A stretch of DNA of 40,978 nt from an uncultured Planctomycetia bacterium (lineage in GTDB: Bacteria; Planctomycetota; SZUA-567; H5-PLA8). Shown here piece by piece: positions 4,255 to 26,499 of the stretch. Made by a program: the position numbers and the translations under genes. The DNA is taken from assembly GCA_964429255.1 (NCBI GenBank), contig CAYSBP010000005.1, positions 1-40,978 on the forward strand. The letters are read 5' to 3'. Under the pieces are notes generated by a model. It did no database searches and was not told where the DNA came from. It saw only the letters and a program-made list of their open reading frames with translations. Within the stretch, counting starts at the first letter, position 1; each line of letters begins with the position of its first letter.

Positions 4255-4309
4255 CGAATCCCTCCTCGGGCAGATCACACTGCTGAATGATCATTCGAAC
4301 AAGCCCAGG

Positions 4310-4830: not shown

Positions 4831-5604
4831 GTGACCGAGCCGAGCACCTTGCCTGTGCAGGGGTCCCCACTGCTGATCACGCCGCGTGTGCTGGCAGGCT
4901 TAAGTTTCGTCGCGCTCGCGCAGGCCGCGCTCGTAGCGGCATGCGTCTGGCCCGGGTGGGATCTCTTCACGATCGAGGCACTTCCCGCACGCCTGGCCGC
5001 GGCGGCCTTGAGCCTGGCCCTGCTGTTGGCCCCCGCGTGGAGTTTCGATCCGCGCACGCACGGCGAATCGCCGTGGCTGCGGAGCGGGCGGTATGCCTTC
5101 CTGAGTCTGTGGCAGGCGGCGGCGCTGGGATTCTTCCTGCTGATTTCAGCCCGCGTGACGGTGCTGTCCAGCGGCGCGATCCTGCGTGCGGTGCTGATCC
5201 TGGGGGCCAGCGCTTGGCTGGTGCTGGCCGCCTCACGTTGCTGGCCGCGCGCATACCTTGGGTTGGCGCTGCTCTGGACCGTCGCCCTGCCGATGGGCGC
5301 CTTCATCGTGGCCGAAGTCTTCATCTCGACGCCTGACGGTTCGATGGGTTGGGCGCGCTCGAAAGGTCCTGGTGTCGAAGCGTTCCGAAACACCGTCGAA
5401 TGGGTGCTCCGGTTCAGTCCCGGCACGGCCATCGTGGGCGCGCTGCAGGGCCATCTGCCGGGCGACGCGCCGTGCGGCTGGCGCGAGGCGGGGCTTTTCG
5501 CCGGCGCGTGTGCATTCGCCGGAGGTCTACTGCAGTGGACACGTGCGTGGCGCCTGACGGCCCACACGGAGACTGCAACCCACACAACCATCGCTGGGTT
5601 ATGA
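4831..5604 (+). CDS. Hypothetical polytopic membrane protein
   Basis: The 257-aa product has about 6 hydrophobic segments rich in L/A/W. GC3 is high in this frame. The overlapping antisense ORF 4782-5900 is R/A/S-rich and not protein-like. I recognise no family motif. Confidence 0.6.
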   Translation: MTEPSTLPVQGSPLLITPRVLAGLSFVALAQAALVAACVWPGWDLFTIEALPARLAAAALSLALLLAPAWSFDPRTHGESPWLRSGRYAFLSLWQAAALGFFLLISARVTVLSSGAILRAVLILGASAWLVLAASRCWPRAYLGLALLWTVALPMGAFIVAEVFISTPDGSMGWARSKGPGVEAFRNTVEWVLRFSPGTAIVGALQGHLPGDAPCGWREAGLFAGACAFAGGLLQWTRAWRLTAHTETATHTTIAGL

Positions 5605-5795
5605 CACAAACCTCTTCTCCTGGCTGGACATGCAGGCGCTTCACGAATTGGGGCATGTCGTGGCGGGATGGCTGACCGGAGCGCAGATCCGCGAGGAGTC
5701 CGCTGCGGGATTAGGTCATTGTCTTGTGCGATCTCAGCCTCTACATTGCGCTGGCTGTTCGCGCGGCGTACTTCTCGGTCAGGGTTCTCGACTCG

Positions 5796-7358
5796 ATGCG
5801 CATCCCCTTCGATCTTCTGGCCGCTCTCCTGGTACTGGAGTCGGTGCGTGAATTGCTGCTGCAGCAGCCCAATCTTCAGGACGGCGGGGCCGCCGATCAT
5901 CTACAGACCACGACCCCGCAGGCGCTCATGGCCCTGCTGGCCTTCTGGTTGATCGCCTGGCTGGTCCATGAACTGCTCGCGCGACGCGCCGAATGGAGCA
6001 CGCGCTGGGGGCTCTGGCCCCAGGGTCTGCGCGTCGTGTCCACACCCGGCGGAGTCCTTCACGAGCCGGCGCGCAAGCACCCGCTGGATGTGCACGCCCG
6101 TCGGGCCACCATCGCGCAGTTCGCCATCGTGGGCCTGTATGCGGTCTTCATCTACGGCTATGGTTGGCCCATTAAGACGACGGCGTGGAGTGGCAGTTAC
6201 TTCATCAACGGGCTGCTGGGCCTCGGACCTTTTGCCGTCGCGATGTTGCTGGCGTTGATCCCGAAACACCGCGTCCTGGCGATGGAGACGGGGCGTGGCG
6301 AGGGCGTGCGGCGGTGGCTCTCTTTCGAGTTGCGGCTGACCTTCCCTCCGCTGATCCTGTGGCTGGTGTTGTACGCCTTCCTTGATCTGGCGCAGTTGCT
6401 GGTACCTGAGGCGGCCCTGCACTACGTGATCGGGCAGCCGTGGATGATCGTAATCGGCAGCGGCTTGGTGCTGGCCGGCCTCGCGATGGCGATCATGCCG
6501 TGGATGATGGTCCGGCTGTGGCACGCGCGGCCGATGGCGGACCATGCGGCCCGCGAGCGGTTGACGGGGTTGCTCAAGCGCTCGGGTGTGAAGGCGCATG
6601 CGATCATGGAATGGGGACCACCGGGTACCGGTTTCGCCAATGCATGCGTGCTGGGGCCGTGGGCGCCCTTCCGCTACATCCTGATCAGCCCAGGACTGAT
6701 GCGGCTGCTTTCGCCCGAAGAATGCGAAGCGGTGATCGCGCACGAGATTGGCCACGTGCGGCATGGACACCTGGGGTTGCTGGTCGTCGTTGTGCTGGGG
6801 TTGGCCGCCTGGAGCGATCTGATTCTGCGGGGGCTCGATCGTCTCCAGTATGGCGATCCGGTCACGCAAGGCGTGGTGCTGATGCTGCTGATCGTCGTGT
6901 ACCTGCGTTTGCTCTTCGGTGTGATTTCGCGGCATTGCGAGCGGCAGGCGGATCTGGCGGCCGCGGAACTGCTCGGTACGCCCGTCCCGTTGATCACCGC
7001 ACTGGAGAAGCTGGCACTCCTTTCCGGCGGCACGCGCGAGGTTTACTCCTGGCATCACGACTCTATCGCCAGGCGCGTGGAGCGACTGCAGACGGAGGGT
7101 GCGGACCCCGAGGCCATCCGCCGCTATCACCGGAGCCTGCGGCCGATGCGCATGGGGTTGCTGGGTCTTTCTGCGGTGGCCATCCTGCTGATGCTCAGCT
7201 TGGCGATGACGGAAGGCGAAGCCGCGAAAAATCCGGCCGAAGAAACAGCGCCGGTAACCGTCCAGGAGGAAGCCGCCGAGACCGACGTGTCCGACCGGTC
7301 CGACTCGTCTGACCCGTCCGACCGTCCCTTGCCTCGTGAAGGAGGACTCACCCCATGA
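5796..7358 (+). CDS. Membrane-embedded M48-family zinc metallopeptidase (HtpX/BlaR1/Ste24-like)
   Basis: Multiple N-terminal TM helices are followed by the HExxH motif AVIAHEIGHVRHGH. A downstream ERQADLAAAELLG segment supplies the third ligand Glu. There is a C-terminal TM and an acidic S/D-rich tail. The start is uncertain: TTG 5724 opens the frame and ATG 5796 is the first Met. Confidence 0.8.
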   Translation: MRIPFDLLAALLVLESVRELLLQQPNLQDGGAADHLQTTTPQALMALLAFWLIAWLVHELLARRAEWSTRWGLWPQGLRVVSTPGGVLHEPARKHPLDVHARRATIAQFAIVGLYAVFIYGYGWPIKTTAWSGSYFINGLLGLGPFAVAMLLALIPKHRVLAMETGRGEGVRRWLSFELRLTFPPLILWLVLYAFLDLAQLLVPEAALHYVIGQPWMIVIGSGLVLAGLAMAIMPWMMVRLWHARPMADHAARERLTGLLKRSGVKAHAIMEWGPPGTGFANACVLGPWAPFRYILISPGLMRLLSPEECEAVIAHEIGHVRHGHLGLLVVVVLGLAAWSDLILRGLDRLQYGDPVTQGVVLMLLIVVYLRLLFGVISRHCERQADLAAAELLGTPVPLITALEKLALLSGGTREVYSWHHDSIARRVERLQTEGADPEAIRRYHRSLRPMRMGLLGLSAVAILLMLSLAMTEGEAAKNPAEETAPVTVQEEAAETDVSDRSDSSDPSDRPLPREGGLTP

Positions 7359-7738: not shown

Positions 7739-8476
7739 TCAGGACGCGCTCCCCTGGATCGTTCCGGCGCGGATGTCCAGTTGTTCGCGCGACTGGATGC
7801 GCGAGATCCGGCCGTCCGTGATCCAGATCACCCGGTCGCTGGCCGCGAGCATCTTCATGTCGTGCGTGGCGGTGATCACGGTGACACCCTTTTCCGCATT
7901 CAGTTCTTTGAGCAGGTCGATGATCTCGATGCCGGTGTTCAGGTCCAGGTTTCCCGTCGGTTCGTCGGCCAGCACGATGGCCGGGTCGTTGGCGAGGGCC
8001 CGCGCGATGGCCAGGCGCTGCTTCTGGCCGCCGGAAAGCTGCGGTGGCCGGTGGTGGAGTCGCTGGCCCAGACCGACGCGTTCGAGCAGATGCACCGCCT
8101 TGTCGCGCGCCTCGTCCATGTTCGTCCCGGCGAAGACCATCGGCAGCGAGACGTTCTCCACCGCGTTCATCACCGGGATCAGGTTGAACGTCTGGAAGAT
8201 GTAGCCGATCTTGCGGCGGCGCAGCCAGGCGAGTTCGAAGACGTCCAACTGGACGATATCGACCTCGTCGATATACACCTCGCCCTGCGACGGCCGGTCC
8301 AGCCCGCCGATCATGTTGAAGAAGGTGCTCTTTCCCGAGCCCGACGGGCCCATGATGCTGACGTACTCGCCGGCCATCAGCGTCAGGTCGATCCCGCGCA
8401 GCGCGTGCACCTCCTGGTTGCCCAGGTAGTAGACCTTGCGCAGGTCGTGGACGTGGACGATTTCGCGTCGTGACAC
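7739..8476 (-). CDS. ABC transporter ATP-binding protein, LolD/MacB/FtsE class
   Basis: Walker A is GPSGSGKST, the Q-loop is IFQ, the signature is LSGGQKQRLAIARAL, Walker B is VLADEPTGNLD and the H-loop is ATHD. The GTG start at 8476 has a GGAGG inside the last codons of the upstream FtsX gene. Confidence 0.92.
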   Translation of the reverse strand: MSRREIVHVHDLRKVYYLGNQEVHALRGIDLTLMAGEYVSIMGPSGSGKSTFFNMIGGLDRPSQGEVYIDEVDIVQLDVFELAWLRRRKIGYIFQTFNLIPVMNAVENVSLPMVFAGTNMDEARDKAVHLLERVGLGQRLHHRPPQLSGGQKQRLAIARALANDPAIVLADEPTGNLDLNTGIEIIDLLKELNAEKGVTVITATHDMKMLAASDRVIWITDGRISRIQSREQLDIRAGTIQGSAS

Positions 8477-8479
8477 CGT

Positions 8480-9187
8480 TCAGACCTCCGCGCGCATGGC
8501 GTCCACAGGCCGCATCCGGGCGGCGACATATGCGGGGTAGGCTGCGGCCAGCACGGTGATCATCGTGCCGGCCCCGACCCCCAACGGCAGTCCGCTCAGC
8601 AGCGGCGACACCCACGGGCCCTGCTGGAGCGTCGCGAACCCCAGCGACAGGCTGAGCTGCAGGATCGTGAGCAGATAGCCGATCAGCACGCCCAGCAGAC
8701 TGCTCACCAATCCCAGAAAGACGCTTTCCACCAGGAACATCCGGACGATGAAACGGTCGAGCGCGCCGAGGCATTTCAGCGTGCCGATCTCGCTGACGCG
8801 TTCGGTGACGCTCATCAGCATCGTGTTCGCGATAACGACCACACAGAGGATGCAGGAGAGCGCCATCAGCCACGTCTCGCGGTCCGCCTGCTGACGTTGG
8901 GCCGCTTTGTCATGGCCGAAGACGCCGAGTTTCTGCAGGACCGCACGCACGTGGACGTCGTCGACGGTGGCCAGTCCCGAAAGGATGGTGTTGGATGAGA
9001 ACGCCGAGATCAGGAAGGCCACGACGACGGCGATGCCGACGAAGATCAGCAGGAAGCGCCCGGGGCGATGGCTGATGTTCATCCAGCTCATGCGGATTGT
9101 GATGCCCCACGGCAGCACCGGTTGCCGGTGGCGTATCTCGGCCTTGTCGGCAAAGATCCGCGAAGAGGCCGACATCACGTCCCTCAT
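8480..9187 (-). CDS. Minimal FtsX-family ABC permease (4 TM, ~40-aa periplasmic loop)
   Basis: TM1 is RFLLIFVGIAVVVAFLISAF, followed by a short loop. The FtsX domain then runs ...MLMSVTERVSEIGTLKCLGALDRFIVRMFLVES...AAAYPAYVAARMRPVDAMRAE. ATG 9187 is preceded by a strong AAAGGAGGTGA Shine-Dalgarno. The track start at 9259 lies inside a hairpin loop. Confidence 0.85.
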   Translation of the reverse strand: MRDVMSASSRIFADKAEIRHRQPVLPWGITIRMSWMNISHRPGRFLLIFVGIAVVVAFLISAFSSNTILSGLATVDDVHVRAVLQKLGVFGHDKAAQRQQADRETWLMALSCILCVVVIANTMLMSVTERVSEIGTLKCLGALDRFIVRMFLVESVFLGLVSSLLGVLIGYLLTILQLSLSLGFATLQQGPWVSPLLSGLPLGVGAGTMITVLAAAYPAYVAARMRPVDAMRAEV

Positions 9188-9213
9188 CGCTCCGTCACCT
9201 CCTTTCGCCCGAC

Positions 9214-9296
9214 AATCGTCGTCGTGATCGTTGTCGTAATCATCGTCGTCCGTTTCCATCGCGTCCGAGCAACCGACGACGATTACGACGACGATT
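9214..9296 (-). repeat. Intercistronic inverted repeat (GAC/GTC-rich stem-loop) between the OPT-like gene and the minimal FtsX gene
   Basis: Arm 9214-9235 (aatcgtcgtcgtgatcgttgtc) is complementary to arm 9275-9296 (gacgacgattacgacgacgatt) at 20 of 22 positions. An alternative register pairs 9233-9250 with 9275-9289. The element lies immediately upstream of the Shine-Dalgarno for ATG 9187. Confidence 0.7.
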
Positions 9297-9299
9297 CCG

Positions 9300-11387
9300 T
9301 CAGAACGGCTTGTCCCGCGTGCACTGCGCGATTAACGACAGCGCTACGGCCGCCATGCCGGCCAACCCCAGTCCGCAGGCCAATCCCGCGGCGACCACCG
9401 GGATATACCGTTTCCACCGTTCTTCGCCGAACTTCTTCTGGAAGTAGTAACGCCCCAGCAGCGCGCCGATCAGCATCGACAATCCGCCGTGCAACGGAGC
9501 ACCGGCACCCGTTACCAGTCCGTAAAAGAAGACCACCGGAAGTCCGGCCATCGAAAGCCCGCCGTAAATCAACAGCCCTGCGACACACGAAACGCCGATT
9601 ACGGCGGGCTTCAAGGCCTGCATCAGCAGCGAATGCTCGCCGCTATTGGCCGTGAAGATGATGTACGCCTGGCGCGCCGCCACCGGCCAGACGCGCGCCG
9701 CGTAGGGGAACGAATCCGACGGAATCTCGTTCAGTCGCCAGAAGAACCACCAGAAAAAGAAGCTGCTGACGAAGACGATAAAGAAGCTCAAGAGTTCCGC
9801 CTTGATGATCGAACGGAACGGCGTCCGGGTCAGTTCCATAATGCGGAAGCTCTGCGCCGCCCATCCGCAGTCCATCAGAGGGATCGGCGCGAACCAGATG
9901 TCGACACCCTTGTAGCCGCTGGCGACAAAGACCGTCTCCTTCAAGTACGGCGTCGAGAGGCCCGAACCCGTGAGCCCGAAAAGCCGTGCGGAAATATACG
10001 AGTGCAGCGGCGTCCAGATGAACCCGAAGATCAGGATGATCCATACCGGGAAACCCGGCACCAGCACGTGCGAGACCCAGGTAAAGCCGCTGATACCGAT
10101 GACGAAGAGTGCCACCGCGACCCAGATGGGGAAGTCGCCACGCTCGCGACAGGCCGTCCGCTCGGGCGGCGCGACGGGCGCGCTGAGCGTCCGGACCACC
10201 GCGTTGCCTGTTTGCGCTTCCGCACGGCGCTTGCGGAACGCGCGGATCATGCTGGCGATCCCGATGACCGCCACTGCGCCGGCCAAGCCGATGGAGACGC
10301 TGAGCCAGAAGTCGTAACTGAGCACGAGCTGGTTCACCAGCAACCCGTTGCCCGGCGTCCAGTGCTCGAACATCCCAAAATGCTGCAGGATGGGATTGCC
10401 GAGCACGCTACTCAACAGAATGCCGATGCAGAGGCCCATCACCAGGCTGAAGGGCAGGATCATGCCGGCCACCAGCGCGCCGAGGTCAAAGCTGATCGAA
10501 ATCAGGCTCGCCGGCAGCACGCCTTCGACGTTGGAGGTGAAGTCCACGAACGGAATCGGCAGCAACATGATCGGCTTGGCCATGAAGAGGCCCGTGACGA
10601 TGGGCAGCAGGACGTAGAGGCAGCCGAAGAGGAAGCCCAGCGACGCGCCGACGCTGAAGACGCGCCAGCGCCAGGAGAGCTTGCCGCGTAGTTCACCCTT
10701 CTCGTCGCGCTCGGTCGATTCGGCCAGCGCCGTCGCACCTTCCGCTGCGACAGGGGCGAGAGGGAAGGGGAGTCGCTCAACGTCCGACGTGGCGCGGAAG
10801 AGCAGATAACCGAGCCCAAACCACGCGATCTTGCCCAGCACATAGCCGACGAAGATGAGCGTCAGTGGCGCCAGGAATCCGCGCGAGGCGCTCCACCACC
10901 AGTCCGGATGCGCCAGGTCCCGTGTCTGGATGCCGGGCGACGTCGAGGGCGGCACCACCCAATCCGGAATCTGTTGGGCAATGCCGCTCGTCTGCGGCGA
11001 CTGCAGCAGGTACTGGTTCCAGATCGCGCCGGCGAACGGTCCGCCGGCGAGGGCGATGTGTGCGGCCGCGACAGCGGCAACCGACGAGGCGACATAGAAG
11101 AGAACAAAGATCTCCTGGCGCTTCAGCTTCGAGAAGCTGCGCTTGGCCAACTCGGCAAAAAGGATGATGGTGACCCATTCGGCCGCCGGTCCCAGCGTCT
11201 GCCCCGCGACCAGCCCCAGGTAGATGGCGCCCGGCATCATCACGATGGCGACGAAGAGCGCGCCCAGCACGGTTCGTGACGAGAAGCCGTCCACAAAAGG
11301 ACCGCTCTCCAGCACGTCGTTGGCCCCGGGCGCGGGAGCCATCGACACCGGCTGGCGACCGCTCGGGTCGTGAAGGGTTTCAGCCAT
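9300..11387 (-). CDS. OPT (oligopeptide transporter)-superfamily-like polytopic membrane protein
   Basis: The 695-aa product has about 14-16 TM segments. The N-terminal pattern is SRTVLGALFVAIVMMPGAIYLGLVAGQTLGPAAEW. There is an ERLPFPLAPVAAEGATAL motif (compare OPT L-x-FPSG-x-A) and a C-terminal RYIPVVAAGLACGLGLAG. The start overlaps the upstream stop by 8 nt (ATGGCTGA). Confidence 0.6.
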   Translation of the reverse strand: MAETLHDPSGRQPVSMAPAPGANDVLESGPFVDGFSSRTVLGALFVAIVMMPGAIYLGLVAGQTLGPAAEWVTIILFAELAKRSFSKLKRQEIFVLFYVASSVAAVAAAHIALAGGPFAGAIWNQYLLQSPQTSGIAQQIPDWVVPPSTSPGIQTRDLAHPDWWWSASRGFLAPLTLIFVGYVLGKIAWFGLGYLLFRATSDVERLPFPLAPVAAEGATALAESTERDEKGELRGKLSWRWRVFSVGASLGFLFGCLYVLLPIVTGLFMAKPIMLLPIPFVDFTSNVEGVLPASLISISFDLGALVAGMILPFSLVMGLCIGILLSSVLGNPILQHFGMFEHWTPGNGLLVNQLVLSYDFWLSVSIGLAGAVAVIGIASMIRAFRKRRAEAQTGNAVVRTLSAPVAPPERTACRERGDFPIWVAVALFVIGISGFTWVSHVLVPGFPVWIILIFGFIWTPLHSYISARLFGLTGSGLSTPYLKETVFVASGYKGVDIWFAPIPLMDCGWAAQSFRIMELTRTPFRSIIKAELLSFFIVFVSSFFFWWFFWRLNEIPSDSFPYAARVWPVAARQAYIIFTANSGEHSLLMQALKPAVIGVSCVAGLLIYGGLSMAGLPVVFFYGLVTGAGAPLHGGLSMLIGALLGRYYFQKKFGEERWKRYIPVVAAGLACGLGLAGMAAVALSLIAQCTRDKPF

Positions 11388-14300
11388 GCTTCTCTCCCGT
11401 CACGAGCGTTGCCTCCACCGGTCCAAAGAGCGCACGGCCCTTCTCGATGTATTCCTGATGCGCCGTGACCGGCAGGACGCGCCACATCAACAGTTGCTTG
11501 CGCAACGCATGGATGAAGCGCGGCGTCAGGCGGCGCCAGTTCTGCTGGTCGCCGCTGTAGCGCGTGGCGGTCAAGTGGCACTGACACACGCCCCGCTCCG
11601 CGCGATACACGATGCGCAGTTGTGCGTCGTGGCTGATGCCCAGATCGAACGGCGCGAGCCACGCACGCATCGACAGAACCGGGATCGGCTTGCCGTCTTC
11701 GCCCGTTTCGATGCCGGCGGCCAGATGCTCCACCGCCAGGTCGCCCACCGTGAGGCCTTGCAGCCCGTCAAGGTATTCGTGCATGTAGGCCTGGAGGCCA
11801 AGAACCGCCGAAGGCGTTGCGACGAACGGTAGATACAACGCCACCGTGTCGGTCGCGAACTGCTCGGCGCCGCCGGCCCCCTGCTTGCGGGATTCCGGGA
11901 TCGCCGCGCGGAACGCCTGATGCGCCGGATAAAGCGTCGAAACCACCACGATGAACATGCTGACCAGCGTGACGAAGACGGTCGTACCCGCGGAATAGTT
12001 CAGCGAAAGGCCCGACAGCGCACCGGTCACCAGCAGCACCTTGGAAATGAGCTGGCCCATCAGGTAGCCCAGCGACGCGCCCAGGATCGCATAGACGGAG
12101 GATTCGGCCAGGAAGAGCGAGGCCACATTGCCCGGCGAGAGCCCGACCGAGTTGTAGACGAAAATCTCGCGGCGCCGCTCGTAGACCGATCCGAGCATGG
12201 TGCTCAATACCATGATGAAACCCAACAGCAGCGGAATGGCGATCTGTCCGGTCAGACTGACCGAACTGGTATCGAGCGCCGCGTAGAGCGTCGTCGACTG
12301 ACCGTCGCAGGCGAGAATCGTCAGGTTCGAACGGCGAACGTAGCCTTCGGCCTCCGCGCCAGGATCCATGTTTTTGCCTGCGCGCACGGCAACGCTGCGC
12401 AGACGCGCGCCCAGCCGCATGCCGAAACGCAACGGGATAACAGCCACCCGCGCGGCGAGGTGGTGTTCGTACTTCTCCAGCGTATCGGGCTGCTCGGCAG
12501 CCGCCTTCTGGGCCTTCTGCCGTTCCTGCCGCACGAAGTCCACCGGCGTGATCGGCTCGCCATCCAGATCCCGGAAGGCGTCGAGTTTCTCCTGACTGAG
12601 CATTCCCAACAGCGGGACGCGCTGGCCGAAGAGCACCACGTCCTTGCCGACGTCCGCGGGACCGTAGCCCAGTTCTTTCGCCGCGTGCTCCGGAAGAAGA
12701 ATGCCCGGTTCGTCCTCGCTCTTGAACCAACGGCCCGCGATCAGCGTCCGGTCGATCCCGGTGACCGCAGGCTCCGTGTGCTCGAGGCAGAGCAGCGAGA
12801 CGACCGTGTAGCGGCGCGTGGTCGTTCCATCCGTCTGTCCGTTTCCGTCCGCGGGCGGCGCCAAGTCGATCTGCGAAAGCTGGCCGCTGGCGTCCGAAAA
12901 GAACCAGGCACGCCCTGCGACGGCGGAATGCAGTTCGGAGGCGGTCGCCTCTCCATCCGCCGCGAAGCCACGTTTCAATGAAAGATAGAGCGGCTCCGGC
13001 AGCTGATTCCAGTGCCGGTCGCGCGCCAGCAATCCTTTATAGGCCGGGTGCCCTTCACGGTGCGACAACTTGGAGATGCTGACGACCGGCACGATCGAGG
13101 TAAACGAGAGCAGCGTGAAGGTGACCAGCACGATCGTGAGCGCGGTCAGAAAGCCGCGTTGCGGACGGCGGCGGATGTTGGCGATGCCCAGATCCACGGC
13201 GCGTACCGCAATGCCGCCCGTGTTGGCGGATTCTTCATGCACGCCCGACACCGCCTGCTTCTGTTCGCGCAACACCGTGTCAAACCGTCCGGCGACCAAA
13301 AGGCCCACCGTGGCGGCCAGCGCCAGAATGATGAACGCCAGCAACACGATCAGCGGCGTCATGGTAAATCGAAAGGCCGGGTGAATGAGGGCCAGCACGG
13401 CAAAACTGCCGCCAAAGATGGCCACCATCCAGAAGATGCGCCGGCGAATGGTGCCTGAAGCGAAGACGAGCCGCTCCATGCAGTAGGCGAACGGCAGCAG
13501 CAGGGCGAGATAGAAGAGCACGCCCTGCACGAGGTTATTCGTCGTCGCCAGCAACTCGGTGTAGGCGCGGTTCTCCAGCGCCCAACCCTTCTCGCTCGCC
13601 GCACGATACGAACCGTAGTCGCAGGCATCGAGTGCCTTGCGCGCCTCATCGAGGTGTTTGGCCGCCTCCTCGCGCGTCTCCTTCACACGCGGGTTGTTGA
13701 CGCCGTTACGCTCCAGTTTTTCGAAGCGAGACTGATCCAGCCGCCACATGTCGCCGGCGCCCTGGAGCACCATCGACGGGATCCGCGCCAGTTCGTTCAG
13801 TGCAAAACCCTTGCCGATGGGATCTTCGAGCGTGTTGTTGAGCAGTACGAGGCGTTTCTCGCGGAAGCCCAGGCCCAGCGTGACGCGCACGCGCAGCAAG
13901 GGGTCGGCCCAAACCGTACAACAGGTCTCGTCGGTGTCCCATACCGGTTCGTCGGCGGTGCTCTGTCCGAATTGAAAGGGCGGGCTCTGCGTCGCCGCAT
14001 TCAGGATCTGCACGTCGGTGATCGGCAGGTAGCCGCGCGGGTCCGTGAGGCCGAAAAGCGTGATCGCCCGCGACGGGAAGCAGACCAGATTTCGGCGTTG
14101 CTCCGCCCCGGAAATGGGCGCCTGCCAGGGGTACTCGCCCGGCCGCGCCATATCGAGCGCGTAGAGCAGTGAACCGTCGCGCTCGATCTGCGCCGCACCG
14201 CCGCCGTTGAACCGCGTAACGGCGATGAACTCGCCCATGGCGCGTTCGTTGGCCTGAATGAAACGCTCGGTCGCCATGCCGTACGCTTCGAGCGCGCAGT

Positions 14301-16095
14301 GCGCAAACTCCCAACGCCCCGGATACTGGATCAGCCCATCGAAGCTAAACGTTCCCTTCTCGTCCGTCTGCGTCCCCGGGATGCCGCGCGTGCCGACCAT
14401 CTGTTTGTCGCGGCGGCGCAGCTTCATGAAGACGTTGGCCTCCGCCAGCGGCTGGTTCGGCGTGAAGTCACGGTGCTGATCGAGCCAGATCGCGCGCCCC
14501 TGAAGACGACCCAGGTAGTCCGGCAAGCCCGAGCTGACGTACGGTCCCTTCCAGAACGCCAGCGCCAGGAGCATATCCGTAAGACCGGCACGACGACCCG
14601 GCACGGCCAGAACCTGTTTCCCCAGCAGTGAGAAGTCCACCGCTTCAAAACGGTCGTCCGGCGTATCGACATGCTGGCGATCGTCATCGATGGTTGCCAA
14701 CGTAACGGCCGGATAGCCGGCCAACGCGGGCAGTTCGCTCCCAAATGCGATCCGGAACGGAAAGTACGTCCACCAGCCGCGCCCCTGCGTCAGGTTGATG
14801 CAGTCGACGAACGAAGCCAGGGCCTCGGCCTCACGCCGCTTGGTATCCTCCTCTTTGCTGAAGGCCGTCAGGTACTCCGACAGCTTGAGGCCCAGGTCGC
14901 GGAACTTCGGCCGAAGGTGATATTCGTATTCATCGCGAAAGTGGCCCTGACAGAAGAGCCCCAGTCGCTCGGAATGGCTGGACAAGTCCAGTCCGACGAA
15001 AAGCCCGGGCTTGCCCATTCGCGCAAGCGGCGAGTCCGGTTCCTTCGTCCAGTTGCTCGCAAGGCCATCGTGCAGTCGCCGTACGAAGGCCGTCATGCCG
15101 GCAAGCGCCTGACCGTGACCGCCCGTGAAAAGCAGGTAGATGGGCCGTTCGGGCTTTTCCCGCAACGCGGAAAAGAAGCGCGCGAGTTCGAGAAGGACCG
15201 CGGCGCCACAGGCCTGCTCGGCGGCTGGCGCCAGCGTTGGCACGACGCTGATCCCGTCGTAGTACGCATGAACGATCAACGGCGCGCGGTCGGTGTCGTT
15301 CGCGTCCCGGGCCGGCTGGCCGGGACAGACGCGGACGAGCAGATTCGAAGCCTCAACGCGTTCCCACTCCATCTCGCAACGAACCGTCACCTCGGCCGCC
15401 GGTCGCTCCAGCAGACCATCCAGCACCGGCAGGTCCTGTTCAGCCACATAGAAACGCGGGATGTCGGCCGGCACGGAAAGGAACTTTTGGCGCGCAGACG
15501 TCCCTGTCGCGCGCGGATTGGCACGAAAGAGAACCGCTTGGCCGCCGAATTCGGCCACACCCAGCCACTCGGCGTCCGAATTCCAGTCCATCACGGCGAT
15601 GGATCCGGATATCTTCTTTCCGTACAGATCGGACTCCCTGCCCCGTCCCAGGTCAACCAGCAACCCGCGAAGTCCTTCCGGACCGGTCTGGCTGGTTCGC
15701 GCCAGATTCGGCCAGAGCGGGTGGAGCGTCAACCGGACGGCGCCGTCCGCCGACAACAGGACCGCCGAACGCACACGCGGAACGGTCACCTGGAACGTCT
15801 GAACGTCGATATCATGGATTCCGAATGCCTGCAGTTCGCTCTGCAGATGGCTGGCCGCTTCCGCTGCGCCGTAACCGCTCAAACGCGAGGGCGCGGCACC
15901 GAGCTTCCGGACGGTCTCACGCACACGACCCATGTCGATGTCGGCACTCGTACCGGAGGGGCCGATCGTCGGAACCGGAACCACCAGTTTGGTTTCATGT
16001 GGCGCGCCGACACCGGCGGCCCAATAGACCGTCAACGCGATGGCCAGCATCGCGCCGACGAGCCAGAGGAAGCCTTTTGCCAAACCGGAAAGCAT
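11380..16095 (-). CDS. Giant (1571-aa) fusion of an M28/PA-like ectodomain, 3 TM helices, a MacB/FtsX-type permease and an unknown cytoplasmic C-terminal domain
   Basis: The true start is ATG 16095 (MLSGLAKGFLWLVG..., AGGAG upstream). Residues 9-28 form a TM anchor. Residues ~75-490 form an M28 fold with a PA insert: LLVDLGRG...GKKISGSIAVMD, IVHAYYDG, GAAVLLELARFF, YLLFTGGHGQALAG, QHVDTPDDRFEAVD. Residues ~858-936 contain three TM helices. Residues 965-1395 form the FtsX module: GIANIRRRPQRGFLTALTIVLVTF, a MacB_PCD-like GRWFKSEDEPGILLPEHAAKELG, then VYERRREIFVYNSVGLSPGNVASLFLAES...TLYPAHQAFR. Residues 1400-1571 are not recognisable. Confidence 0.8.
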   Translation of the reverse strand: MLSGLAKGFLWLVGAMLAIALTVYWAAGVGAPHETKLVVPVPTIGPSGTSADIDMGRVRETVRKLGAAPSRLSGYGAAEAASHLQSELQAFGIHDIDVQTFQVTVPRVRSAVLLSADGAVRLTLHPLWPNLARTSQTGPEGLRGLLVDLGRGRESDLYGKKISGSIAVMDWNSDAEWLGVAEFGGQAVLFRANPRATGTSARQKFLSVPADIPRFYVAEQDLPVLDGLLERPAAEVTVRCEMEWERVEASNLLVRVCPGQPARDANDTDRAPLIVHAYYDGISVVPTLAPAAEQACGAAVLLELARFFSALREKPERPIYLLFTGGHGQALAGMTAFVRRLHDGLASNWTKEPDSPLARMGKPGLFVGLDLSSHSERLGLFCQGHFRDEYEYHLRPKFRDLGLKLSEYLTAFSKEEDTKRREAEALASFVDCINLTQGRGWWTYFPFRIAFGSELPALAGYPAVTLATIDDDRQHVDTPDDRFEAVDFSLLGKQVLAVPGRRAGLTDMLLALAFWKGPYVSSGLPDYLGRLQGRAIWLDQHRDFTPNQPLAEANVFMKLRRRDKQMVGTRGIPGTQTDEKGTFSFDGLIQYPGRWEFAHCALEAYGMATERFIQANERAMGEFIAVTRFNGGGAAQIERDGSLLYALDMARPGEYPWQAPISGAEQRRNLVCFPSRAITLFGLTDPRGYLPITDVQILNAATQSPPFQFGQSTADEPVWDTDETCCTVWADPLLRVRVTLGLGFREKRLVLLNNTLEDPIGKGFALNELARIPSMVLQGAGDMWRLDQSRFEKLERNGVNNPRVKETREEAAKHLDEARKALDACDYGSYRAASEKGWALENRAYTELLATTNNLVQGVLFYLALLLPFAYCMERLVFASGTIRRRIFWMVAIFGGSFAVLALIHPAFRFTMTPLIVLLAFIILALAATVGLLVAGRFDTVLREQKQAVSGVHEESANTGGIAVRAVDLGIANIRRRPQRGFLTALTIVLVTFTLLSFTSIVPVVSISKLSHREGHPAYKGLLARDRHWNQLPEPLYLSLKRGFAADGEATASELHSAVAGRAWFFSDASGQLSQIDLAPPADGNGQTDGTTTRRYTVVSLLCLEHTEPAVTGIDRTLIAGRWFKSEDEPGILLPEHAAKELGYGPADVGKDVVLFGQRVPLLGMLSQEKLDAFRDLDGEPITPVDFVRQERQKAQKAAAEQPDTLEKYEHHLAARVAVIPLRFGMRLGARLRSVAVRAGKNMDPGAEAEGYVRRSNLTILACDGQSTTLYAALDTSSVSLTGQIAIPLLLGFIMVLSTMLGSVYERRREIFVYNSVGLSPGNVASLFLAESSVYAILGASLGYLMGQLISKVLLVTGALSGLSLNYSAGTTVFVTLVSMFIVVVSTLYPAHQAFRAAIPESRKQGAGGAEQFATDTVALYLPFVATPSAVLGLQAYMHEYLDGLQGLTVGDLAVEHLAAGIETGEDGKPIPVLSMRAWLAPFDLGISHDAQLRIVYRAERGVCQCHLTATRYSGDQQNWRRLTPRFIHALRKQLLMWRVLPVTAHQEYIEKGRALFGPVEATLVTGEKHG

Positions 16096-16175
16096 GCTGG
16101 TGCCCGTGATCTCCTCTGTCCGCGGACCGCTGTCCGCTGCGCATCCAGGCCCCGCAATCCGGAGGATTGCGTCAC

Positions 16176-18155
16176 TCACCCCCAGAAGTGGTAGACGGTC
16201 TTGCTGCAGATCGCGCCGTAGATGCCGAAGATCGCACCGACGGTGAATTCCCCCAGCACCACGCCCACCACACAGGGAATCGCACGCCGATAAGCCGCGA
16301 CCCCGCCGTAGCGCGTGATCAGCAGCTTGATGAGCCAGCCGAGGAAGATGCAGAACCAGATCTTCCACATCGACCAGGAGGAGGCCGTGGCGTAGCCGAC
16401 GGGATGCAAGAGCCACCACGTGAAACTCATGCGCAGTCCGCCCAGCAGCAAGGCGAAAGCCATTCCGACGAAGAGCGCGATGGTCGAGCCTATTGCGGCG
16501 CTACTCGGCCGCGCCATCGGTTCCGCAAGACGATTCCAGCCTTCGCTGGCAAACAAACCGGCCACCTTGCCCGCGTGGCCGTGGACATAGCAGACGTGCA
16601 GCATGGCCCAGAAGGCCGCGATCGAGCCGATCACGATCGCCACGATCATCGCGTACATCATGGCTCGCGAACGGGTCCTGGTAAGCTGCGCCAGCTTGAA
16701 GCCTTCCATGTCATGCGCGGAGAAGTGCGCCCGGTAGGCCCGGTTAAACCAGGCGAAATAGCCGAACGCCGCCACGTTCTCTTCGCCCAGCGCACGCGAA
16801 CCGACTGCGTTCTGCATCAGCACGCCTGGTCCCATTCCATGGAGGTCGTGTGCCGGCGGCCCCAACTCCGCGCGCATTCGCGCGATGGCGATGGCATATA
16901 TGAAGAAGATCAGGAAGAAGATGAACATCAAACCCCATGAGGCGTGCTTCGTCACCCATTGGCCGTTCTCCATGACCTGGGTCTGGCCGATCCGCGTGCC
17001 CATGAACATCAGCAGTCCGCCGAAGATCAGCAGCAGGATGAAGGTGGTTCGATAGCGGAGCGGTTCCTGGCTGTCATCCGCGCCGCCGGGACGGCCGAAA
17101 ACCGTGCGAAAGACCGCCTTCAGGTGCCGCCGCGAAAGCCAGAGCGCCAGCAGCCCCAGCGCAAGGTATCCGCCCGCCGCCTGTTCACTCGTATAGGGAA
17201 AACCGGGAAGATCGCTGACCCCGATCACCGACGTCAGCACGTTTTGAGCAAGAAAGAAGAGGTAGAAGAACCAGCAGCTAAAGGCCAGGTCGGTCGGCAG
17301 GAAGAACGCCAACCCGATCACAAAGGGAAACAGATTGATGGTCGTGCCGGCAATCGAATTCCAGGGCCGCTCGACCAGGTACTCGCGAAAGCTGAACGCA
17401 TCGACGATCGGAATCTTCGGTACGTTCGGATAGAAATGATTGAGGTTGTTCAGAATGTCGATGACCGCGACGGTGCCGAATCCGATCCAGAAGAGCCGGT
17501 TCTTCAGCAGCCCGGAGAGCCCCGTGGAGATGGTCAGCGGAATCTGGATGATCGGGAAACTGAGCCGCTCCTGCTCCGTCCACGGCCGACGGAAGAGGAT
17601 GTTGATGCAGAGCAGCGCGCCGGTGAGCACAAAGAGGAAGGAGCACCAGAATCCGAGCGGCTTCAACCAGGCCGAGATGAACTTCCATTGGTACAGCGAA
17701 CTGTTACCGACCTCGAAGGCCCGCGCCGCGTCCTTATCCTGCAGTAGCGCCCACCCCGGCACGTGCGGCAGGATCAGTTCCTCCCAGCGGTTGCTCGCGT
17801 TGGCTGCGTGCACCGGGTACGAGATCATCGGGACGAGGATCTGCAGCATGTCATGGCTGCAGAATGTGCCCGCGATCGAGAGCATCATGTAGATCGTGAG
17901 CATCTCGGCCGCCGTGAGTGCCTTGGCGGGCAGGTAACGCTGCACCAGCAGGTTGAGGAGCGCGATCACAAAGACCACGACGGTGACGTGATAAAAGAGC
18001 GAGATGGCGGTGGAGTGACTCGAGTACCAGATGACTTCGGAGAGGACCACCCACCAAGCCAGGAGCGGCATCAGTCCGCACGCGATGCAGACGGACCGGA
18101 GGGTCACGCCCCCCATACGCTCTTCGCCTGCGGGCTGAGGCATTTCCCCCCACAT
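16176..18155 (-). CDS. Polytopic membrane protein, distant paralog of the OPT-like protein at 9300-11387
   Basis: The ~655-aa product has many TM segments. It shares with 9300-11387 the ERL(S/P)FP motif (TEQERLSFPIIQIP) and a C-terminal R-Y...Y/W-R/K-R-x-IP-x-V-x-G pattern (ITRYGGVAAYRRAIPCVVGVVLGE). It is the first gene of the operon. ATG 18143 is an alternative start with better Shine-Dalgarno spacing. Confidence 0.65.
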   Translation of the reverse strand: MWGEMPQPAGEERMGGVTLRSVCIACGLMPLLAWWVVLSEVIWYSSHSTAISLFYHVTVVVFVIALLNLLVQRYLPAKALTAAEMLTIYMMLSIAGTFCSHDMLQILVPMISYPVHAANASNRWEELILPHVPGWALLQDKDAARAFEVGNSSLYQWKFISAWLKPLGFWCSFLFVLTGALLCINILFRRPWTEQERLSFPIIQIPLTISTGLSGLLKNRLFWIGFGTVAVIDILNNLNHFYPNVPKIPIVDAFSFREYLVERPWNSIAGTTINLFPFVIGLAFFLPTDLAFSCWFFYLFFLAQNVLTSVIGVSDLPGFPYTSEQAAGGYLALGLLALWLSRRHLKAVFRTVFGRPGGADDSQEPLRYRTTFILLLIFGGLLMFMGTRIGQTQVMENGQWVTKHASWGLMFIFFLIFFIYAIAIARMRAELGPPAHDLHGMGPGVLMQNAVGSRALGEENVAAFGYFAWFNRAYRAHFSAHDMEGFKLAQLTRTRSRAMMYAMIVAIVIGSIAAFWAMLHVCYVHGHAGKVAGLFASEGWNRLAEPMARPSSAAIGSTIALFVGMAFALLLGGLRMSFTWWLLHPVGYATASSWSMWKIWFCIFLGWLIKLLITRYGGVAAYRRAIPCVVGVVLGEFTVGAIFGIYGAICSKTVYHFWG

Positions 18156-18288
18156 CCTCCCCGTCAGTCACGATGTTGCTGAATGTGCTTGCTCCCACCT
18201 TACCAAATGCGCACCGGCATTCGCCAGTCGCTTTCTGCGCCGAATCCCAATAAGGGTGTGTTTCAGAAAAGTTCCCAGACTTGGGGGT

Positions 18289-18336
18289 GGAACCGCCAAA
18301 GAACGCCAGGGGACGGGGAAACGACAGGAACCGCCA
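18289..18336. repeat. Exact 10-nt direct repeat GGAACCGCCA (two copies) in the divergent intergenic region
   Basis: The copies lie at 18289-18298 and 18327-18336, 38 nt apart start to start. They sit between the minus-strand ABC operon start and kdsD. Their function is unknown. Confidence 0.5.
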
Positions 18337-18400
18337 TGATGCCAAGGACGCTAGCAGTTACGAGGATGCACCCAAGGCCCTGACCAGGGCCCAACGGCAG

Positions 18401-18429
18401 ATGACAGTCCCGTCTCTTTCAGCTATGCT
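18401..18429 (+). promoter_or_regulatory. Candidate promoter for the kdsD operon (ATGACA, 17-nt spacer, TATGCT)
   Basis: The -35-like ATGACA lies at 18401-18406 and the -10-like TATGCT at 18424-18429, with a 17-nt spacer. This is about 40 nt upstream of TTG 18471, which itself follows AGGAAGGAG. Confidence 0.35.
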
Positions 18430-18470
18430 ACGGGGCCTCACGTTGACCCGTCTGAGGAAGGAGCGCGCCG

Positions 18471-19487
18471 TTGAGCAGGACCCCATCTCGGCAGAAAGTC
18501 CGTCCGTCACCGGGTCGGATCAACCCGGGCTACGCGCGGCGCGTGATTGCGGCGGAGGCGCACGCGGTCGCGGATCTTCGGCATGCGATTGACGCCTCGT
18601 TTATCCAGGCTGCGGAGCTGATCCTTGACCGCGGGCGCCAGGGGGTCGGACGGCTGGTGACGACCGGGGTGGGCAAGGCGGGTCTGATCGCCCAGAAGGT
18701 CTGCGCCACGTTCGCCTCGACGGGCACGCCGGCGTTCTTCATGCATCCGACCGAGGCGAGACACGGCGATCTGGGCATGTTGACGTCGCGCGACGTGGTG
18801 CTGGCTTTTTCGAATTCGGGCGAATCCGACGAGCTCTCCCACATTCTTCCCGCGATCCGGAAGATGCGGGTGCCGTTGATCGCGATGACGGGCCGGCCGA
18901 ACTCCACGCTGGGCCGTGCATCCGACTGCGTTCTCGACATCGGGCGCATCGAGGAGCCCTGCCCGTTGCGGATGGCGCCGAGCGCTTCGACGACGGCCAT
19001 GCTGGCGCTGGGCGACGCGCTGGCGCTGAGCGTCCTGAAGGCGCGCCGCTTCACGGCCCAGGACTATGCGCGGCTCCATCCCGGCGGCGCGCTGGGGCGC
19101 AAGCTGATGAAGGCGCGCGACGTGATGCGCACCGGCGCGCGACTGGCGCTGGCCCGGTCGGACGCGACCGTAGGCGAAGCGCTCTTACGCATGTCCAGGG
19201 CGCGTGGCGGAGCGGTTGTGATCGTTGATGCACGCGCGAAGCTTCTGGGCGTCTTTACCGACGGTGATTTCCGGCGCCTGATGATGCGCGATCCGGGGCA
19301 GTTCCACGCGTCGGTGGGTACGTTCATGACGTCGCCATGCAAGTTCATCCAGGACGACACGCTGGTGGCTGAAGCGCAGGCGTTGATGGCCGAGAAGCAC
19401 ATTAACGCGCTTCCCGTGGTGAAGTCGGACGGCCGTGTGGTCGGACTGCTCGACATCCAGGACCTGGTGGGGTTCCCCGTATTGTGA
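18471..19487 (+). CDS. kdsD: Arabinose-5-phosphate isomerase (SIS domain plus two CBS domains), KdsD/KpsF
   Basis: The SIS motif is GVGKAGLIAQKVCATFASTGTPAFFMHPTEARHGDLGM, with ...SNSGESDEL and MAPSASTTAMLALGDAL. A tandem CBS pair at the C-terminus ends ...INALPVVKSDGRVVGLLDIQDL. Confidence 0.9.
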   Translation: MSRTPSRQKVRPSPGRINPGYARRVIAAEAHAVADLRHAIDASFIQAAELILDRGRQGVGRLVTTGVGKAGLIAQKVCATFASTGTPAFFMHPTEARHGDLGMLTSRDVVLAFSNSGESDELSHILPAIRKMRVPLIAMTGRPNSTLGRASDCVLDIGRIEEPCPLRMAPSASTTAMLALGDALALSVLKARRFTAQDYARLHPGGALGRKLMKARDVMRTGARLALARSDATVGEALLRMSRARGGAVVIVDARAKLLGVFTDGDFRRLMMRDPGQFHASVGTFMTSPCKFIQDDTLVAEAQALMAEKHINALPVVKSDGRVVGLLDIQDLVGFPVL

Positions 19488-20065
19488 GCCCAAGAGCCGA
19501 AATCCGTGCCGGTGGACGTGGCTGGCCCGCCCGTGAAGCCTACGCGGCCATCCGACTCGTCCTGTTTGACGTCGACGGCGTTCTGACGGATGGTGGCATC
19601 TACCTGGATGCCCGCGGGGCCGAGACCAAGCGTTTCGACGTGCGTGACGGCTCGGGAATGGCCTTTCTCCGGCATGCCGGCCTGGAGATGGCCATTCTGA
19701 GTGGCCGGTCCAGCGCGGCGACGGATCGGCGGGCTGCGGACCTACACATACCGAAGACCCGCGTCTGGCAGGGCGCCCGACGTAAAGGTCCCGTCTTCGC
19801 TGAAGTTCTGAAGACCTGTGGCGTCCGTAGAGAGGAAGTCGCTTTCATTGGAGACGACATCGTGGATTTGCCGGTTCTTGAGCAGGCGGGAATTTCTGCC
19901 TGTCCCGGCGATGCCCATTCGGCGGCCATGGCGGCCAGCCACCTGATTTGCGCGGCATCCGGAGGCCGCGGCGCTGTCCGGCAGTTCTGCGAACACCTGA
20001 TCAAGCGTCGCGGGACGGGTGAGTGGGAACGGACGATCCGCAGGTACCTGGGCCAGAAGGAATGA
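19484..20065 (+). CDS. kdsC: KDO 8-phosphate phosphatase (HAD superfamily), KdsC
   Basis: HAD motif I is LVLFDVDGVLTDGGIY, followed by FDVRDGSGM, then ILSGRSS, then AFIGDDIVDLPV. GTGA start/stop overlap with kdsD. Confidence 0.85.
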   Translation: MSPRAEIRAGGRGWPAREAYAAIRLVLFDVDGVLTDGGIYLDARGAETKRFDVRDGSGMAFLRHAGLEMAILSGRSSAATDRRAADLHIPKTRVWQGARRKGPVFAEVLKTCGVRREEVAFIGDDIVDLPVLEQAGISACPGDAHSAAMAASHLICAASGGRGAVRQFCEHLIKRRGTGEWERTIRRYLGQKE

Positions 20066-24179: not shown

Positions 24180-24189
24180 CCCAAACGCC

Positions 24190-26496: not shown

Positions 26497-26499
26497 CGC

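Follow-up and report, generated by a model that had tools for sequence, protein, structure and literature searches.

Among ATP-binding cassette (ABC) systems of type VII, those of the FtsEX type activate periplasmic hydrolases by mechanotransmission, MacB reportedly expels the enterotoxin STII, and LolCDE is said to extract lipoproteins. Those OPT-family members that have been characterised are all cation-coupled uptake symporters of peptides or metal chelates; the eukaryotic ones work alone, and the prokaryotic ones are biochemically uncharacterised (PMC3061005). Here, we describe a locus that brings relatives of both kinds of system together. It lies in a stretch of 40,978 nucleotides from an uncultured Planctomycetia bacterium (contig CAYSBP010000005.1), the whole of which we analysed and call the window, and it is a minus-strand block (18155-7739) of five genes in the order A-G-B-X-D, as read from a map of open reading frames (ORFs) and their translations. 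Its central product is the giant protein G, in which an ectodomain with the fold of M28 peptidases is fused to a MacB-like permease, and the gene for G has a conserved partner in OPT-like genes of the A and B types. We hold the architecture of this five-gene machine, as described below, to be highly probable.

A first-pass annotation, made from the letters alone, had proposed five linked minus-strand genes for an FtsX/MacB-type ABC machine, and its coordinates and junctions were all confirmed base by base. Gene A (18155-16176, minus strand, as are all five; 659 aa) encodes a polytopic membrane protein with DUF6785 and DUF6784, a distant paralogue of B and probably of the OPT superfamily. Gene G (16095-11380; 1571 aa, eight transmembrane [TM] helices) encodes a protein made of a PA-M28 ectodomain, extra TM helices, a MacB-like FtsX module, and a C-terminal domain. 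It is followed by gene B (11387-9300; 695 aa), for a polytopic membrane protein that is a probable, divergent member of the OPT family, by gene X (9187-8480; 235 aa), for a minimal four-TM permease of the FtsX family, and by gene D (8476-7739; 245 aa), for an ABC ATPase of the LolD/MacB/YbbA class. An 80-nt gap separates A from G, with GAGGAG about 15 nt 5' of the G ATG at 16095, and the start of B overlaps the stop of G via ATGGCTGA. A 112-nt spacer lies between B and X, then come AAAGGAGG and the X ATG at 9187. The stop of X (TGA) is separated by 3 nt from the GTG of D, and a GGAGG sits within the end of X, which agrees with the embedded Shine-Dalgarno site that had been proposed for this gap. 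The ORF of G is open upstream as far as a GTG at 16419 and that of X as far as an ATG at 9259; the Shine-Dalgarno sites upstream of the chosen starts support both, and homologues of G of 1530-1600 aa align from about residue 1.

Profile searches and structure models agree on the composition of G. In the window protein, Pfam finds FtsX (1e-10, residues 1288-1396) and a partial M28 match (residues 270-341). Across 21 homologues of G, it finds FtsX in 21, M28 in 20, MacB_PCD in 7, and PA in 1. Hence, the FtsX and M28 homologies for which a profile search of the giant ORF had been suggested are both there. We modelled the protein with AlphaFold2 (AF2) in two fragments, residues 1-940 (alignment of 39 sequences, pLDDT 88.4, pTM 0.86) and residues 870-1571 (pLDDT 81.3), and compared the models with Foldseek, each alignment being that of a window fragment to full-length database proteins. 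The first fragment matches 2ek8, 6hc6 (BSAP), 8ack (PaAP), GCPII, and TfR1 at E values of 1e-21 to 1e-17, with 2ek8 at 2e-21 for the PA-M28 domain. The second fragment matches MacB, LolC/E, HrtB, YtrF, YbbP, BceB, and FtsX (5gko at 2.4e-15). The predicted folds of both halves of G are therefore those that the first-pass annotation had expected, and the type VII reading itself, with FtsX matches by Pfam in both G and X, withstood the analysis.

The N-terminus of G is a TM anchor (residues 2-30, 16006..16092, minus strand), which is a helix at 2-30 in the AF2 model and a hydropathy peak at 5-23. The periplasmic PA and M28-fold domain, with its non-canonical invariant pocket, comes next (residues ~50-500, 14596..15948, minus strand). 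It is followed by beta-rich periplasmic domains (residues ~520-760, 13816..14538, minus strand; strands at 528-751, pLDDT mostly 80-97), for which Pfam gave no match in the window protein or in its homologues. Three long periplasmic stalk helices then run into three extra TM helices (residues 775-939, 13279..13773, minus strand); the AF2 helices of this part are 775-796, 802-823, 827-878, 883-904, and 914-939, and the extra TM helices (~856-878, 883-904, and 914-939) are accompanied by invariant E874, R875, and H905-P906-A907. With the N-terminal anchor, these three make four of the eight TM helices additional to the FtsX module. The giant permease with an ectodomain of ~830 aa of PA/M28 type is thus a genuine fusion, but its ectodomain does not lie inside the FtsX loop: it is an N-terminal module with a TM anchor of its own.

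The MacB/LolC-type FtsX module (residues 959-1398, 11902..13221, minus strand) consists of an N-terminal amphipathic helix, TM1, a periplasmic core at ~1002-1278, TM2, a coupling helix, TM3, and TM4, in this order. Sequence searches of the PDB match it to LolC, MacB, and YtrF, and Foldseek aligns its core with the isolated periplasmic core domain (PCD) of MacB (3ftj, TMt 0.61). In the coupling helix, E1306, R1307, E1310, and I1311 are invariant in all lineages, including those where X-D are not adjacent. This invariance suggests that G probably always engages a nucleotide-binding domain (NBD), wherever that domain is encoded. The protein ends in a cytoplasmic alpha/beta domain (residues 1405-1571, 11383..11883, minus strand; AF2 pLDDT ~88-96), for which searches detected no sequence relative in the PDB and only noise in Pfam. 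In an exhaustive phmmer search, this domain occurs in 1038 clusters at 50% identity, and its place is invariably the very C-terminal end, either of proteins of ~1450-3050 aa or of fragments. Because it is restricted to the C-terminal end of G-type proteins, it can serve as a signature of the family. Docking of the NBD and regulation are possible roles for it.

The M28 domain of G has kept the fold and changed the active site. The family profile matches 2ek8 (2.5e-24), YwaD (3.3e-22), Nicalin (1.9e-10), TfR1 (~3e-6), and Nicastrin (~6e-3) in the PDB. We mapped the columns of the M28 site by a HMMER alignment of this profile to 2ek8 and tabulated them in 81 sequences, using what we take to be the residue numbering of the Aeromonas aminopeptidase (His97 to His256). 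The canonical set of zinc and catalytic residues is in none of the 81. The equivalent of the catalytic base Glu151 is His in every sequence. That of the zinc ligand His97 is Tyr in 62, Phe in 11, and His in 6; that of the zinc ligand Glu152 is Phe, Gly, His, or Tyr; and that of the zinc ligand His256 is Ser, Ala, or Gly in 71. The position of the bridging ligand Asp117 holds Glu in 68 sequences and Asp in 9, and Asp is found at the equivalents of Asp99 (81/81) and of the zinc ligand Asp179 (79/81). Three of the five zinc ligands are thus replaced, and, judged by sequence, a di-zinc aminopeptidase mechanism would be excluded for the entire family, since no member has the canonical set. Yet few parts of the protein, which is only ~30% identical across phyla, are as conserved as the pocket. 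Its conserved residues include Y278, Y279, D280, S283, E293, H327, D370, S453, R473, and D481, of which Y279, D280, S283, H327, R473, and D481 do not vary, while D370 is found in 79 of the 81 sequences. This invariance points to a site that was remodelled and did not decay, and the strength of the conservation argues for a selected function. The name pseudo-peptidase given to G in the first-pass annotation is therefore apt, with the amendment that the pocket is not simply dead. It could bind a ligand, as in TfR, nicastrin, and nicalin, or it could be a remodelled catalytic centre.

Among these relatives, Nicalin (PDB 7tm3_7, at the E value given above) is matched better by the family profile than the Aeromonas-type and classical leucyl aminopeptidases are. 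The G family and Nicalin have in common an insertion of four residues after the YD motif, 'YD(S/A)..V(V/A)P..GA(E/D)', that 2EK8 does not have; in the window, the region of this insertion is at 15100-15270 (residues ~276-330 of G). The likeness may bear on the origin of pseudo-peptidases of the nicastrin and nicalin type.

The two genes at the end of the operon encode a compact motor. X has a Pfam FtsX match of 1.6e-18, four hydropathy peaks, and a periplasmic loop of ~43 aa (residues 64-106), in keeping with the minimal FtsX with a ~40-aa loop that had been described. Its family comprises 5965 proteins at E<=1e-10, and among the best 120 listed all are ~226-233 aa long. The role of a partner fits X because it has no periplasmic effector of its own. 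D matches ABC_tran (Pfam, 1.8e-34), and its best NCBIfam models are LolD (230 bits), MacB (227), and YbbA (224), with FtsE at 202, all under the equivalog cut-offs; the LolD/MacB-class assignment made earlier was correct. In its translation, the Walker A (GPSGSGKST), the signature (LSGGQKQR), the Walker B with its Glu (LADEPT), and the H-loop (ATHD) are all intact, and these motifs show a predicted ATPase of the LolD/MacB class that is catalytically competent.

Relating A and B to each other and to the OPT family took comparisons between profiles. A matches DUF6785 (1.7e-139, 466 bits) and DUF6784 (1e-27, 96.8 bits) above the gathering threshold, and both domains occur in 20 of the 20 homologues of A that were scanned. 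A crude hydropathy scan gave at least 12 hydrophobic segments in A, and 13-14 peaks for A and B, where OPT transporters have a topology of 16-17 TM helices. BLASTP found nothing significant between the two proteins. Their profiles, each built from 20 homologues, align over 565 columns (hhalign, 95.8%, E 6.8e-9), and this match makes A and B paralogous. A homologue of B that is 57% identical to the window protein passes the Pfam OPT cut-off (45.8 bits against 25.8) in a collinear alignment of ~330 positions. PF03169 is found on ~12% of the best 120 proteins of the B family, several of which are named 'peptide transporter' by NCBI. With relatives above the OPT cut-off, the label OPT-like is justified for B, and the description of A and B as two OPT-like proteins can be retained. 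Neither window A nor the homologues of A that were scanned gave a direct Pfam OPT match, and searches of PDB sequences with the profiles of A and B detected no relative.

The family of G is large and widespread. A search with the single window sequence yielded 147 homologues from Planctomycetota, Phycisphaerae, Lentisphaeria/Victivallales, Kiritimatiellota, Hydrogenedentes, and Zixibacteria, the majority of full length. When one genome per species was scanned, relatives turned up in at least 576 species genomes of more than 10 phyla, closed chromosomes included. The best 80 of these, all of them metagenome-assembled genomes (MAGs), extend the list to Armatimonadota, Omnitrophota, Latescibacterota, Gemmatimonadota, Sumerlaeota, and others. 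We asked of these data whether the giant ORF might be a chimera, an artefact of assembly or annotation that joins the gene of an M28 peptidase to that of an FtsX protein; the first-pass annotation had itself warned of an assembly chimera. Independent contigs encode a 99%-identical G of 1571 aa, and full-length homologues at 30-78% identity, more than 100 of them, align with it from end to end. Together with the breadth of the family and with a C-terminal domain that never leaves the end of large proteins or of fragments, these data rule the artefact out for practical purposes, and we regard it as extremely improbable. Some members of the family are larger still, reaching 2300-3050 aa, and their extra domains might hint at the ligand. 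One of 2335 aa (P0116, L085:3105-10112) has a partial LysM match N-terminal to M28; it covers 25 of 43 profile positions in one lineage, and we do not rely on it.

We then studied the neighbourhood of G in the 45 loci where each flank of G has 6 kb or more, and searched their ORFs with the five window proteins. An A or B gene is on the same strand near G in 42 of the 45 loci (B in 38 and A in 27). In the reciprocal direction, three of three B proteins picked from long contigs are encoded directly downstream of a G gene, and independently called genes either overlap or touch at the G/B and G/A junctions. Hence, the genes for G and for proteins of the A/B type are almost inseparable across more than 10 phyla, and the conserved core of the system is G plus one or more OPT-like genes. 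The expected clustering of all five families is borne out for this core, and X-D lie beside G in only 13 of the 45 loci. The complete order A-G-B-X-D recurs far above chance, in eight other loci (L001, L008, L009, L011, L012, L014, L015, and L053) that include MAGs of Hydrogenedentota, Sumerlaeota, and Victivallales.

Three variants of the operon can be distinguished. The window belongs to the first, A-G-B-X-D, found in the Planctomycetes-Verrucomicrobia-Chlamydiae (PVC) group, Hydrogenedentota, and Sumerlaeota. The second, of Armatimonadota and relatives, is without gene A and has two genes inserted between B and X-D: one for a conserved cytoplasmic protein of ~300 aa with CxxC/CH motifs and no Pfam family, and one for a PqqD-family protein (PF05402, 1e-8 to 1e-14). 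These inserts are at L016:16573-17978, L018:16503-17874, L038:10303-11966, L093:11090-12483, and L085:12417-13370; both genes are absent from the window and from the PVC and Hydrogenedentota loci. In the third variant, of Latescibacterota and Gemmatimonadota, G is accompanied by A and B and has no adjacent X-D. The copy number and order of A and B vary as well (AGB, GAB, BAG, or two A without B). The PqqD-family gene prompted a reading in terms of ribosomally synthesised and post-translationally modified peptides (RiPPs), which we rejected: a 58-aa ORF beside G in L085 encodes a protein with two TM helices and not a precursor, and no modifying enzyme is conserved. An unbiased clustering of all ORFs in 83 loci revealed no universal functional neighbour that would name a substrate, the additional genes being lineage-specific.

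The explanation that we consider best, and to which as a whole we give somewhat less than an even chance, is that the locus encodes one multi-subunit inner-membrane machine, an ATP-driven and receptor-dependent OPT importer built on a type VII ABC mechanotransmitter. Two copies of D would attach, at the coupling helices, to one G and one X, an asymmetric pair like LolC/LolE, in which X, without a periplasmic domain, would be the silent half; the G+X+D2 stoichiometry is suggested by the content of the operon and by the LolCDE precedent. ATP binding and hydrolysis would move the stalk helices of G and so reposition the PCD and the PA-M28 head, whose remodelled pocket would be a receptor for a peptide-like ligand and not a zinc aminopeptidase. 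Through its four extra TM helices, G may dock on A and B, and the motor would load or gate them for uptake of the ligand, much as a tethered substrate-binding protein would. In loci of PVC, Hydrogenedentota, Sumerlaeota, and Armatimonadota, X-D come after B within one operon. A device that captures a ligand and feeds it to A and B is the most economical reading, given that characterised OPTs are all importers; the capture-and-import function is a tentative proposal, held with a little less conviction than the explanation as a whole. We are more doubtful about its strongest form, a hybrid primary/secondary transporter in which a type VII motor with an M28 pseudo-peptidase receptor physically gates permeases of the OPT fold.

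Several observations weigh against the single importing machine. X and D are found together on the strand of G in only 13 of the 45 loci. Stand-alone X-D pairs lie among housekeeping genes in Latescibacterota, Gemmatimonadota, and Handelsmanbacteria (L086:10001-11622, L087:10001-11498, L090:8001-9520, and L089:8001-9501); their X is 61-64% identical to the X within the operon of L055, and in three of the four loci the pair lies just downstream of a gene for a PDZ and Peptidase_S41 protein (CtpA/CtpB-like). Since X-D are adjacent to G in a minority of loci and alone elsewhere, X2D2 could be a system of its own and G could homodimerise. The profile scan gave no Pfam or NCBIfam match for window B, and A would be OPT-like by transitivity only, through its homology to B. 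To our knowledge, every OPT so far studied acts autonomously as a secondary transporter, and no precedent requires an ABC partner. The invariant set of His327 with Asp and Glu residues could make up a novel catalytic centre and not a site for binding, and a cytoplasmic PqqD-like protein that binds peptides, as in Armatimonadota, would by analogy suit export as well as import.

Carried to its end, the first of these objections would make the locus a set of independent systems under common control, in which A and B are ordinary H+-coupled OPT importers, G and X form homodimers that share D, and all belong to one regulon, for instance for peptide scavenging. X-D alone in many genomes, the varying number and order of A and B, and the solitary OPTs of eukaryotes (PMC3061005) speak for this. 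It leaves unexplained why the adjacency of G and B is near-universal and reciprocal in more than 10 phyla, with frames that overlap or abut. It also gives no role, in terms of known type VII systems, to the extra TM helices of G with their invariant polar residues or to its unique cytoplasmic domain, and it has X act alone without a periplasmic domain to act with. We consider it unlikely, and we place at about the same low level a two-step export or processing pathway, in which A/B or another route delivers a peptide or lipopeptide to the periplasmic face, the G-X-D motor extracts or expels it from the outer leaflet or the periplasm, and the PA-M28 domain holds or trims it. Such a pathway would be in line with characterised type VII systems, which act on periplasmic or outer-leaflet substrates, and with the fold matches of G to them; the insertion between B and X-D, in operons of the Armatimonadota type, of a PqqD-family protein, whose fold recognises RiPP leader peptides, and of the 300-aa CxxC protein would suit it too. 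These two genes are lacking, however, in the window and in the PVC and Hydrogenedentota loci, and the loci share no conserved gene for a precursor peptide, a modifying enzyme, a membrane-fusion protein, or an outer-membrane factor. Canonical peptidase chemistry is gone from G, and the OPTs that have been characterised all import (PMC3061005).

The precedent of FtsEX-type mechanotransmission suggests a further possibility, that of a cis-acting analogue: G, driven by ATP, would regulate its own ectodomain, which would have a non-zinc or mono-metal activity on wall peptides, and A and B would recycle the peptides. The invariant pocket, with a universal His at the position of the general base and with E293 and D370, would be in keeping with this, as would the partial LysM match of P0116 and the position of stand-alone X-D next to a gene for a Ctp-type periplasmic protease in other phyla. 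But the residue set of the pocket predicts no activity, the LysM match is confined to its 25 of 43 positions in a single lineage, and no peptidoglycan enzyme is conserved in the neighbourhood across the 83 loci. The FtsX and FtsE models of NCBIfam are far under their cut-offs (X 37.9 against 225), and the order of the genes is X then D, not ftsE-ftsX. We judge this to be less probable still than independence or export.

The ends of the operon are well marked on the map. At its 3' end, a BlaR1-like M48/M56 gene (5724-7358, plus strand) converges on it, and at its 5' end, kpsF/kdsC/LptD_N-like genes (18471 onward, plus strand) diverge from it. The divergent intergenic region between A and kpsF (18156..18470) is the presumed promoter region of the operon, from the ORF map; it holds a sole sigma-70-like match, on the plus strand, in numbers not above those in shuffles. 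In consensus scans for promoters and terminators across the locus, counts were no higher than in shuffled sequences, and no terminator-like site was found at the B-X spacer. The hairpin noticed earlier in this spacer is there (9223..9299, minus strand; GTCGTC/GACGAC repeat arms, -43.7 kcal/mol), though with z = -1.8 against shuffles in the RNA folding it is modestly unusual only, and, having no T-run, it is not an intrinsic terminator. Read in frame from the ATG at 9259, its GTCGTC/GACGAC repeats (spacer stretch 9190-9299, minus strand) mimic an Asp-rich N-terminal extension of X (METDDDDYDNDHDDD...), which is probably a false extension of the ORF. A second, short hairpin (GCAATCC-TCC-GGATTGC) directly follows the stop of A, at ~16150-16170.

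The remaining genes of the window are of mixed functions. The genes beyond the 5' boundary form a lipopolysaccharide/3-deoxy-D-manno-octulosonate (LPS/Kdo) cluster (18471-24179, plus strand) with a kpsF-like gene (SIS+CBS), a kdsC-like HAD phosphatase gene, and genes for two large proteins with weak matches of the LptD_N/LptA type; we dropped this adjacency as a functional clue because it is not conserved in L001 or other loci. Elsewhere in the window (24091-29356 and 37589-40828, plus strand; 2599-4278, minus strand; 5724-7358, plus strand) are folP (Pterin_bind), cdaA (DAC) with ybbR, and genes for a MoxR-type AAA ATPase, a 1079-aa M16 peptidase, a Porin_O_P-like protein, and the BlaR1-like M48/M56 peptidase. 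The small ORF upstream of the latter (5349-5675) has no match to a BlaI-type repressor family. Two consecutive putative ORFs of ~930 aa (30117-32897 and 32894-35734, listed on the minus strand) have no Pfam match; the GC skew of 30117-35734 is unusually strongly positive, up to 0.19, and there are long ORFs on its opposite strand too. In 16 of the 83 related loci, genes of the FGE-sulfatase (SUMF1-like) family lie close to the operon, in most cases sharing its strand in Latescibacterota and Gemmatimonadota (L070:3102-4043, L058:2244-3284, L064:6474-7343, and L001:18317-19402 among them). SurA-like, Metallophos, and Thioredox_DsbH genes recur in subsets of loci in the same two phyla; not one of these genes is universal, and the window has none of them.

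The family thus delimited is large and unstudied. It counts at least 576 species genomes and, at 50% identity, ~1000 clusters, and it extends across Planctomycetota, Lentisphaerota, Kiritimatiellota, Hydrogenedentota, Sumerlaeota, Armatimonadota, Omnitrophota, Latescibacterota, Gemmatimonadota, and Zixibacteria. Current annotation gives its members no other names than 'FtsX-like permease', 'M28 peptidase', 'DUF6785', or 'peptide transporter'. Should the parts cooperate, type VII ABC mechanotransmission would here be linked for the first time to permeases of the OPT fold, and prokaryotic OPTs would gain their first genetic and biochemical context. A bacterial M28 pseudo-peptidase acting as a membrane receptor would bear on the origins of proteins of the nicastrin, nicalin, and TfR type. 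The hybrid transporter, if true, would be a third kind of receptor-dependent uptake beside ABC systems with substrate-binding proteins (SBPs) and TRAP, and in bacteria may correspond to the arrangement known from eukaryotes, where nicastrin and nicalin are M28 pseudo-peptidases seated on a polytopic partner. The system may also help to account for the way in which abundant uncultivated degraders obtain peptides or reshape their envelope.

How does it compare with the systems already described? The first-pass annotation did not recognise the combination as a characterised system, and we found no description in the literature searched of DUF6785, of DUF6784, or of FtsX/MacB combined with M28 and OPT. 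Like the type VII ABC systems (MacB, LolCDE, FtsEX, YbbAP, HrtBA, and YtrEF), it has the four-TM FtsX fold with an amphipathic helix and a coupling helix, and a separate ATPase of the LolD/MacB class. The periplasmic core domain of G lies between TM1 and TM2, as in type VII permeases, and LolC/LolE are a precedent for an asymmetric pair of permeases. Unlike these systems, G adds an N-terminal TM anchor, a PA-M28 ectodomain of ~830 aa, three TM helices, and a unique cytoplasmic C-terminal domain, and it is near-obligately linked to OPT-like genes; X is nearly without a periplasmic loop, and there are no MacA/TolC partners, no Lol hook, and no partner of the EnvC/PcsB type. In MacB the NBD is fused N-terminally, whereas here it is a separate gene, and the MacB equivalog model gives 26-37 bits (cut-off 966); no HlyD/membrane-fusion or outer-membrane factor gene is in the operon or conserved in the 83 related loci. 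The LolC/E models reach 21-35 bits (cut-offs 362-540) and LolD 230 (cut-off 307.75). The FtsX models reach at most 37.9 bits, with X at 37.9 against 225 (cut-offs 225-255), and FtsE 202 (cut-off 264.85); the order X then D and the missing periplasmic domain of X also set the operon apart from ftsE-ftsX. By fold and by class of ATPase, the system therefore belongs to the type VII ABC superfamily, and by these scores and features it is neither MacB nor LolCDE nor FtsEX.

The remaining parts stand in a similar relation to their own families. The best profile and fold matches of the ectodomain are PA-domain M28 aminopeptidases (2EK8 of Aneurinibacillus, BSAP/YwaD of B. subtilis [6HC6], and PaAP of P. 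aeruginosa [8ACK]), over ~450 residues including the PA insert. These are soluble, secreted di-zinc enzymes, whereas the domain of G is tethered to the membrane and fused to an ABC permease; as far as its residues tell, it has the M28 fold and falls outside the catalytic definition of M28. It resembles TfR1, nicastrin (gamma-secretase), and nicalin (the BOS/translocon complex) in the M28 (+PA) fold, in the absence of a catalytic zinc site, and in being membrane-anchored, and those proteins act with polytopic membrane partners. They are, in contrast to G, single-pass eukaryotic proteins without an ABC module. A and B are polytopic proteins of ~660-700 aa like those of the OPT family (TC 2.A.67), and close homologues of B pass the Pfam OPT model; the window proteins themselves have no OPT match, and A is filed under DUF6785/DUF6784, so within the OPT superfamily the two would be outliers. 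We know of no OPT that works with an ABC system. With Opp-type ABC importers and with the SBP-dependent TRAP and TTT systems there is an analogy in logic only, a receptor handing its ligand to a permease, and no homology. The system is thus a large and conserved elaboration of the type VII ABC systems, in which a new transport principle is a real but unproven possibility.

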